A stretch of DNA of 64,000 nucleotides. It comes from Eledone cirrhosa (taxonomy: Eukaryota). Below are positions 5,465-7,334 of the stretch, piece after piece. The notes below the pieces were generated by a model that ran no database searches, was not told the origin of the DNA, and was given only the letters and a program-made list of their open reading frames with translations. Both the position numbers and the translations under genes were made by a program. The stretch's first letter is position 1; each line of letters opens with the position of its first letter. The stretch spans positions 51,336,001-51,400,000 of the forward strand of contig OZ024744.1 of the NCBI GenBank assembly GCA_964016885.1, written 5' to 3'.

Positions 5465-6649
5465 TAAACCTTGGGTAACCTCCAGTACGATTTCGTAACT
5501 CTCTGCCTTAAAGCAGAGATCACCTTAGAGAAAGTTAGTGTTTCACAAACAAATCAATAAAAACAAACAAACAAACGAACAAACCTTACGGCTGTAGCAG
5601 CCGCGTATTCGGTTGTTGTGAGTATGTATAAATCCTTTGGTAATCTCCAGTACGCGCGTTCAAAATCAAGGGCAAGCCCTATTAAATTTCTTCACTGTAA
5701 GTAAGGTCCACAGATAGTTATTATTATTATTATTACTTTTTTTTTTCGTAAGGGTGCTTAACACCCCTTTCAAGTATATAATTTGTAGCAATAAATAAAA
5801 TCTTGAAGAAGAAAAAAAAAAGAAGAAAAAAATCCGAAAAAGAAACACTTTCCGGCGGCGGCCGTGGTGGTAACGTGTTTTGTTGATAAGCAATAGTAAA
5901 CTCCAGAGCGTACTCTCAACAGCTGGTAAGGGTAAAATCCCCTTTTTGGTTTCTGTTTACTGTAATAGGGTCCACCACAAATGGCTGGCACATAGAGTGT
6001 GAGTGAGTGTGTGAGTATAACAATGAGTGAGAGTGAGAGTGAGAGAGACAGAGAGTGTGAGTGAGAGAAACCCGTTTCGAATTTCTTATCTCTGTGCGTT
6101 TTCACCAACAAAAACAAAAACAACAACAGCAACAACAATTAATATTAATAATAATAATGATAATGATTTCTATAATAATTAATATTAATAATAAAAGAAT
6201 ATTAAATAAACAAAAATAAAATCTTACGGCTGCAATGATAGCAGCAGCGAGTTCGTTCCGTGATATCGGTAGTAGTGGTGATGATGATAATTGCTGTTAT
6301 TGTTGTCGTCGTTATTATGGTTGTTGTTGTTATTGTTGATGTTGATGTTGATATTGATATTGCTCCGACTGTTTGTTGCCGTTGTTATTGTTGTTTTGAT
6401 GGCGGCGGCGGCGGTGGTGATAACGGCCGTAGTATTTATTATAAATATTAGCATTAATATTATTAATATTATTATTATTATTAGTTGTAGTAGTAGTGGT
6501 ATTTCGTAAAATCCTCAGGTAGCTGCTTGTTATTTCGCTCTCCGTGGTTGGCTAGGGCTACAACCCCCTTTTTTGAGCTCTGTATGCTTTTAGATCCACA
6601 AATAAACAATCCTACGTCCGCAGTGGCAGTGTTGTTTGTTCACTTGACG

Positions 6650-6695
<46 letters not shown>

Positions 6696-6965
6696 CAGCA
6701 GCAGTAGTAGTAGTAGTGGTGGTAGTAGTAGTAATTGTGATGATGGTGGGGATGGTGAAGAATGGTGGAGGCAATAAGAGTAGTAGTAGTAGTGGTGGTG
6801 GTGGTAGCAGCAGCAGCGGCGGCGGAGGCGGCGGTGATGGTAGTGGTGATAGTAGTAATAGTAGTTGGGGTGACCGTGGTAGCGGTAATGTTGACTGTCG
6901 TGGTGGTGATTGTGGTGGTGGTGGTGGTGAAAGAGGCTTCGTTGGAAATGGTGACGGCAGTGGAG

Positions 6966-7017
<52 letters not shown>

Positions 7018-7042
7018 CAGTAGTAGCAGTAGTAGTAGTAGC

Positions 7043-7079
<37 letters not shown>

Positions 7080-7334
7080 ATAGTAGTAGGTGTGTAATCC
7101 TTGGGTAGCCTCCAGTAGGAACACTTGCGTAGCTGGCAGGGGTAACCCCTTTTATTATTATTGTTGTTGTTATTATTATTATTGTCGTTTTTTTTTTTTT
7201 TTTTTTAGATTCTGTATATTGTGTGGGTCGACAAACAAACAAACAAAAGCTTACGGCCGCGACGACAACGTATAAACCACTCGGCCGAGCGCGGCGGCTA
7301 GGAATATTAACATCAGGGTTCACCCTTTGGTAAA
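5465..7334. promoter_or_regulatory. Array of ~5-6 diverged tripartite modules (A-B-C) upstream of FoxA
   Basis: Motif A (AAWCCTTKGGTARYCTCCAGTA) at 5465, 5630, 7095, partial at 5896, 6507, 7321; motif B (GGG-loop-CCC then T-run) at 5748, 5921, 6546, 7131; motif C (AAACAAA..CTTACGGCYG) at 5561, 6204, 6599, 7231. Confidence 0.6.
5524..5589 (-). other. Candidate 66-nt intron in the FoxA 5' UTR
   Basis: Minus strand reads GTAAG...CACTAAC-TTTCTCTAAG|G (donor, branch-point-like motif, pyrimidine tract, acceptor); the branch motif is unusually close to the AG. Confidence 0.3.

Follow-up and report, generated by a model that had tools for sequence, protein, structure and literature searches.

A repeated module upstream of the Eledone cirrhosa FoxA gene: a candidate multiplied uORF cassette in a putative long mRNA leader

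The window analysed here, a stretch of 64,000 nt of Eledone cirrhosa DNA, carries on its minus strand a FoxA gene, whose coding sequence (CDS) is a single uninterrupted ORF of 433 aa and whose locus is the single best forkhead match genome-wide. When residues 1-140 were compared, the best protein match was an Octopus vulgaris HNF3-beta-like protein, with 97% identity over 45%. The database entry for the O. vulgaris FoxA protein (P0001, 356 aa) has an internal Met as its first residue and is missing some 77 N-terminal residues that are conserved in other molluscs; this entry is possibly a truncated gene model. In the window, the FoxA frame stays open for 26 codons 5' of the AUG (5447-5524, minus strand), a stretch that includes a CUG in motif A (described below) with G at both -3 and +4; a protein search for this octopus 26-codon in-frame extension found none. 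In addition, a decayed tandem repeat of 20-22 bp lies at 3560-3790, 350-600 nt past the FoxA stop and possibly within the 3' UTR, and a 67-bp satellite with 46-bp variants occupies about 23 kb at 29700-53085, being broken near 32000-32900.

Since FoxA is encoded on the minus strand, the module found in the 2 kb or so 5' of its start codon has to be read on that strand, and not antisense to FoxA, as the sequence-only reading had described it. Six units are recognised on the FoxA strand. Along the sense strand, the order within a unit is motif D, hairpin B, a gap of 22-32 nt, motif A, motif C and a U-rich tract; motif A is often followed by a codon resembling a start and by a short frame that closes with CCG-UAA-G within motif C. 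In the last unit (unit 6), the frame following motif A is FoxA itself. The features, listed from the 5' side of the sense strand, are the following.

5447..7638, minus strand: putative long 5' leader, reaching at least about 6340 on contigs linked to the CDS and 7638 on separate contigs; depleted in AUGs
7315..7333, minus strand: unit 1, motif A core (7324-7333) and, in overlap with it, a B-type hairpin (7315-7326), directly before the AUG
7251..7313, minus strand: unit 1, AUG uORF of 20 codons with a CCG UAA end in motif C (7250-7257) and an inner in-frame ACG at 7271
7212..7232, minus strand: unit 2, motif D and TACAG
7099..7150, minus strand: unit 2, hairpin B (7138-7150) and motif A (7099-7115)
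6611..6618, minus strand: unit 2, motif C (ACG UAG G), without an in-frame AUG and with ACA six codons before the stop
6513..6599, minus strand: unit 3, motif D (6593-6599), TACAG (6580-6584), hairpin B (6554-6569) and motif A core (6513-6522)
6224..6454, minus strand: unit 3, AUG uORF of 76 codons with a CCG UAA end in motif C (6223-6230) and CUG six codons before the stop
5916..5993, minus strand: AUG uORF off the pattern, 25 codons, its stop between hairpin B and motif A
5960..5975, minus strand: unit 4, motif D and TACAG; about 5951-5975 aligned in organisms A and E
5929..5943, minus strand: unit 4, hairpin B
5891..5906, minus strand: unit 4, motif A, degenerate
5848..5876, minus strand: unit 4, defunct motif C (stop changed to GAA, additional CCG triplets) in the frame of an ACG; organisms A and B align over 5859-5884
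5750..5768, minus strand: extra hairpin B of 8 bp, of which two are G-U pairs when read on the sense strand
5695..5711, minus strand: unit 5, motif D and TACAG
5669..5680, minus strand: unit 5, hairpin B
5634..5650, minus strand: unit 5, motif A; no alignment in relatives at 80%
5586..5606, minus strand: unit 5, six-codon frame ACG...CCG UAA, its stop in motif C (5585-5592); forms a hairpin of 7 bp when folded
5500..5519, minus strand: unit 6, hairpin of 8 bp in the position of B, with a sequence unlike B (region z -2.7)
5469..5485, minus strand: unit 6, motif A, about 22 nt before the FoxA AUG; 5447-5508 aligned in five of six organisms
4145..5446, minus strand: FoxA coding sequence

On the sense strand, the motif A core lies at 7333, 7108, 6522, (5906), 5643 and 5478, motif C at 7257, 6618, 6230, (5856) and 5592, and the B hairpins at 7326, 7150, 6569, 5943, 5768 and 5680, where brackets mark the copies of unit 4. 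Motif D, with the pattern GT[GC]GA[CT]C, is a fourth motif beside A, B and C and is found in four copies (7232, 6599, 5975 and 5711), each followed by TACAG 11-16 nt on. We compared the motif counts with those of 1000 dinucleotide shuffles of the leader: the A core was found five times against a shuffle mean of 0.03, motif C four times against 0.02 and hairpin B six times against 0.12, and the counts of A, B, C and D were matched by none of the 1000 shuffles. As the patterns were derived from the copies themselves, this test measures recurrence and does not give an unbiased P value. The gap between B and A measures 22-32 nt in five of five units, while the other spacers differ up to tenfold.

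These results allow an assessment of the earlier description of the module. The motifs are present at the coordinates that it gave, and its statement that the module ends 19 nt from the FoxA start agrees with motif A at 5465, which begins 19 positions off. It had described three parts recurring about five times in fixed order: the recurrence stands, with six units and with motif D as an overlooked part, but the hairpin at 5748 is an extra copy and the order is therefore not strictly fixed there. The B hairpins that it listed are real, and the copies at 5669-5680 and 7315-7326 are to be added to them. When the 5896 and 7095 copies are folded on the sense strand, the minimum-energy structures do not contain the proposed pairing between the CCAG of motif A and the CTGG of hairpin B. 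Finally, the stop codon of the upstream frame inside motif C had escaped notice.

When the 3.0-Gb genome was scanned, the 19-nt motif-A pattern gave three matches, all at the FoxA locus (control 0), the proximal 271-nt segment matched only itself, and the motif C pattern gave one match, at the FoxA locus, and one control match. Since these patterns match at the FoxA locus only, the module is not a dispersed repeat, bearing in mind that an absent match is no proof of rarity. A dispersed transposon fragment, the origin that the sequence-only reading had named as fatal to its proposal, would be expected in many genome copies and is rejected. The motif D pattern, in the same comparison, shows no genome enrichment (10 matches vs 20 in the control). 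An Rfam scan of 3000-9200 gave 22 weak matches, none of them at gathering score, and no motif A core or motif C was found in the 1.5-kb flanks of three other Fox loci of the same genome (three of 15 matches).

Whether the module belongs to the mRNA was assessed on contigs of relatives, from runs guessed to be RNA (22 of 24 rows marked 'RNA?', shares 0.10-0.13) and with none recorded as RNA, nor any RNA run listed for E. cirrhosa itself; the contigs are unstranded, and FoxA has no proven intron by which RNA could be told from DNA. Six such runs from six coded organisms were compared, five of which cover the FoxA CDS start, while organism G (X22) matched repeats only. The CDS start region is about 94% identical in the four relatives aligned on it. 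A single contig joins the CDS to about 5975 in organisms A and E and to 6340 in organism B, with the order of the window kept, and these CDS-linked contigs take in the three proximal units; the piece 5590-5621 is present in the contigs of organisms A-E, as judged from joints and depth-table arithmetic. Separate contigs cover 6507-6632 (organism B), 7216-7373, 7398 or 7419 (organisms A, B and E) and 7558-7638 (organism E). The stretch 7095-7150, with motif A and hairpin B of unit 2, was covered in none of the runs, probably since it was passed over as a repeat. The module-bearing contigs run at 25-100% of the depth of the CDS contig, although contig depth is a poor measure.

In addition, the leader contains three AUGs in 1954 nt, compared to 19.4 in shuffles (minimum 10 among 1000), and the same three compared to 9.6 when only the non-repeat segments are considered (shuffle minimum 3). 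As the contigs are unstranded and carry no start site, a FoxA leader of at least 2 kb is what we infer from these data, and the module is probably part of this very long mRNA leader. The sequence-only reading had left the choice between a structured element in a FoxA leader and a multiplied enhancer; the CDS-linked contigs, the AUG depletion and the confinement of species differences to hairpin loops favour the former.

All three leader AUGs have a pyrimidine at -3, which is a poor context by the definition in section 6 of PMC8892498 (accessible text); the FoxA AUG has A at -3 and, by the +4 criterion given in the same text, is also not optimal. Motif C contains a stop codon in four of its five copies (CCG UAA G in three, ACG UAG G in one), and two of the three leader AUGs, at 7313 and 6454, are in frame with a motif-C stop (P 0.075; two of four, P 0.11, if the AUG at 7606 is included). 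Both of these frames begin with M-L-I-F. Six codons before the stop the units carry ACG (7271), ACA, CUG (6244) and ACG (5606), a rule that is post hoc and was drawn from copies that are not independent; in unit 4, an ACG stands eight codons before the lost stop. The last six codons are alike among the units (x-L-S/P-S/L-R/Q-P), with differing Leu codons, and motif A precedes every start region, that of FoxA included. Three features depart from this pattern: unit 2 has no start there, unit 4 no longer has its stop, and the AUG at 5993 belongs to no unit. A single reading frame linking motif A to motif C throughout was also considered, and none does so in all units.

As far as structure is concerned, seven of the nine hairpins fold better on the sense strand, one folds worse and one equally well. 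Four of the five B-A regions fold no better than shuffles. Pairing of motif A with 18S rRNA was tried and rejected: a site chosen by eye beforehand was good locally (four of six copies at or below 0.05), but over the whole rRNA all six copies paired no better than shuffles.

The comparison with relatives was most informative for unit 1, for which the AUG and the stop are kept, with no gap, in the three organisms covering it (A, B and E). Changed positions in this unit number 0 of 39 within the motifs and 15 of 78 elsewhere (Fisher P 0.002), and 0 of 26 vs 15 of 78 when the U-tract is left out (P 0.02). The in-frame inner ACG at 7271 is an AUG in the three relatives, and the hairpin at 7326 shows in them two loop substitutions with the stem intact; likewise, in organism B the unit 3 hairpin has a 3-nt loop deletion and an intact stem. 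Most of the changed codons of unit 1 are nonsynonymous (5/6 in organisms A and E, 6/7 in organism B), with none in the last three codons, and the codon changes in these three organisms give no sign of purifying selection on the uORF peptide. Since organisms A, B and E are kin to each other and have most changes in common, their weight is hardly greater than that of a single comparison. Gaps of -3, -2, -1 and +1 occur in organism B at 6246-6281; if this low-complexity alignment is right, they may shift the frame of the 76-codon unit-3 uORF. The relatives' contigs span 5622-5708 and 5885-5950 without alignment at 80%, so that the conservation of motifs A, B and D may be poor in units 4 and 5.

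Conservation across species, proposed earlier as a check on the module, is thus found in close relatives only, and it is not found in 11 non-cephalopod FoxA loci. In this case, loci from metagenomes were scanned (17, then 11, of 78), and no motif A core, C or B was detected, but two lone D-like 7-mers. By eye, clusters of TGGAC/GGACT words, loosely resembling motif D, are seen about 450 to 100 nt 5' of the FoxA AUG in loci L006, L009, L010 and L015; in L006 and L010, these clusters contain GTGGACTTTG.

At the protein level, an N-terminal extension closing with [SP]GDYLT before the conserved core is present in eight of 15 FoxA homologues, of which the three named ones are all bivalves; the bivalve extension measures 17-19 aa and is AUG-initiated. 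Motif A would be able to encode the [SP]GDYLT stretch at all 12 of its 12 positions (0-8 of 1000 shuffles in each case), a post hoc observation that concerns one common ancestor and holds at the protein level only. Among 148 further FoxA-like representatives, none has the bivalve extension, and none shows an A-like reading close to its start.

Further upstream, a second iterated unit, CGCCCCTCT..CGCTAGATGGC, presumably CTCF-like, lies at 7557-7610, 7946-8000 and 8088-8140 (plus strand), with a partial copy at 8848 and AG repeats in between; its pattern gives 2 matches vs 0.17 expected. One contig of organism E contains the segment 7558-7638, which overlaps the first copy. CCAAT-like sites are found near 8342 and 8665 and GC-box-like sites at 8925-8965, the names CTCF-, CCAAT- and GC-box-like being our assumption at this locus.

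We propose, with about an even chance of being right, that the module is a tandemly multiplied uORF cassette in a FoxA leader of about 2 kb, which limits FoxA translation. The recurrence, the single locus, the stop codons in motif C, the AUG depletion and the sparing of the motifs in unit 1 are observed; the leader, the translation of its frames and the repression are predicted. Specifically, a segment would, likely, have been multiplied in tandem inside the mRNA leader, and ribosomes would start inefficiently at the poor-context AUG or near-cognate codons of each cassette, translate the short frame, terminate at the Pro(CCG)-stop and, for the most part, leave. FoxA would then be made by those scanning ribosomes that leak past all the cassettes, and its output would vary with the stringency of start-codon choice, as with Hox uORFs. 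That each cassette would take away a share of the scanning ribosomes is suggested by analogy with the poor-context Hox uORFs (PMC8892498, accessible text) and with the CCG-stop of GCN4 (PMC4793210, accessible text). The hairpin and motif A, 22-32 nt apart before start regions that include that of FoxA, might help to set initiation, which is a guess.

A stronger version can be formulated. In it, the units would be ribosome-handling cassettes arranged as a serial chain, each made of hairpin, motif A, weak start, six codons, Pro-stop and U-tract; FoxA would be the final cistron, and the dose of this master gut regulator would be tuned by copy number and by swaps between AUG and ACG. In the same version, motif A would be an ancient molluscan start-region element, kept in bivalves as CTGGAGATTACC-like bases behind SGDYL. 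Taken jointly, these two propositions appear distinctly improbable.

The uORF cassette has to be weighed first against a DNA-level explanation, according to which the multiplied unit is an enhancer or promoter, with forkhead sites for autoregulation, that some transcripts merely run through. Sense-strand TRTTTRY sites, which we take to be the forkhead consensus, number 12 vs 2.1 in shuffles, and ten of the 12 lie in T-rich tracts behind motif C or a C-like stretch; the count is, however, inflated by TGTTTGT arising from (TTTG)n repeats. The fixed B-A spacing would also suit paired factor sites, and the CpG observed/expected ratio of the leader is 0.94, with 0.82 in a control stretch making this a weak point. 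On the other hand, an enhancer leaves unexplained the AUG depletion, the stop-framed ACG/AUG exchange and the inverted repeats whose 3-10 nt loops absorb the interspecies changes, and the CCAAT-, GC-box- and CTCF-like motifs, as we assume them to be, sit at 7550-9000, 5' of all units. Because forkhead-type sites cluster behind motif C, and because conserved vertebrate Hox 'leaders' turned out to be promoters (10.1101/2022.02.10.479744, accessible text), we retain this alternative, rather doubtful as we consider it.

There is a slim chance that motif C, with its GTAAG and the U-rich tract behind it, serves as a 5' splice site, which would make the units alternative first exons or short introns of the leader. 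GTAAG is present in three of five motif C copies, motif D ends in TACAG, and an 83-nt candidate intron can be drawn at 5589-5507 (minus strand) from GTAAG to TTTAAG, with a branch-like CACTAAC about 26 nt before the AG. In units 1 and 2, such introns would have lengths of about 43 and 36 nt, and contigs cross those donors gap-free in organisms A, B and E (7216-7373 and beyond) and in organism B (6507-6632), so that two candidate mini-introns are retained; the 83-nt candidate falls partly in 5544-5589, which the contig comparison passed over as a repeat. We judge equally unlikely that the module is a decaying relic of old tandem duplications, with AUGs avoided as in any leader: the lost stop of unit 4, the lost start of unit 2, the several degenerate motif A copies and the parts of units 4 and 5 that find no alignment in relatives would all suit decay, but the motifs persist though microsatellites overwrote the spacers, and the motif positions of unit 1 were spared between species (0/39 vs 15/78). 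A polycistronic message of functional micropeptides is very improbable, as the codon changes of unit 1 are mostly nonsynonymous and motifs A and C are not linked by one frame in all units, despite the likeness of the pre-stop codons and the reading of motif A as YWRLPK in three copies with three synonymous differences.

uORFs usually arise singly by point mutation. If the cassette reading holds, what would be new is a set of uORFs built from one copied cassette, with AUG and ACG starts toggling among species, uORF control of developmental regulators itself being known. The locus would provide a natural series on how near-cognate starts, Pro-stop endings and adjacent hairpins set the dose of a transcription factor, and, for cephalopod development, a tangible example of control at the level of translation.

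A literature search, which covered few subscription papers, found no account of the module or of FoxA uORFs. In the accessible text of the respective sources, C. elegans uORFs are reported in atf-5 and not in pha-4/FoxA (PMC4225475), no FoxA uORF appears (PMC5316868), and forkhead and CTCF-like motifs are mentioned only at cephalopod loop anchors (PMC13652810). The remaining comparisons likewise refer to the accessible text of each source.

Calicivirus TURBS have in common with motif A a short purine-rich motif (CUGGAG in our case), tens of bases before a start region and beside a hairpin (PMC5972666). An identity with TURBS is rejected: the UGGGA core is replaced by CUGGAG, stop and start do not overlap, the stops lie far from the next starts, and 18S pairing equals that of shuffles. 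A further comparison is with the Hox 'transcript leaders' that proved to be promoters, where, as at FoxA, conserved motifs just 5' of a regulator's start allow an RNA or a DNA reading; those hyperconserved 'leaders' are rarely in transcripts, whereas the FoxA module is found in relatives' contigs guessed to be RNA (10.1101/2022.02.10.479744).

The other two parallels are uORF systems. Vertebrate Hox mRNAs carry conserved inhibitory uORFs in poor context, and have in common with the FoxA module a developmental transcription factor preceded by short upstream frames with AUGs lacking a purine at -3; three Hoxa leaders of 53-98 nt have one uORF each, with CAGE, ribosome and reporter support (PMC8892498). 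In contrast, the putative FoxA leader of about 2 kb holds copies of one unit, with a hairpin, extra motifs and several near-cognate starts, as read from the sequence. Yeast GCN4 likewise places several short uORFs ahead of a transcription factor, with CCG (Pro) before the stop; this last codon lowers reinitiation at uORF3 and uORF4, an effect stated for yeast only, in a system where AUG uORFs of 2-3 codons, some permissive and others non-permissive, act together under the control of eIF2 (PMC4793210). At FoxA, by comparison, the intact copies all end alike, the frames have at least six codons, and U-rich tracts lie behind the stop.
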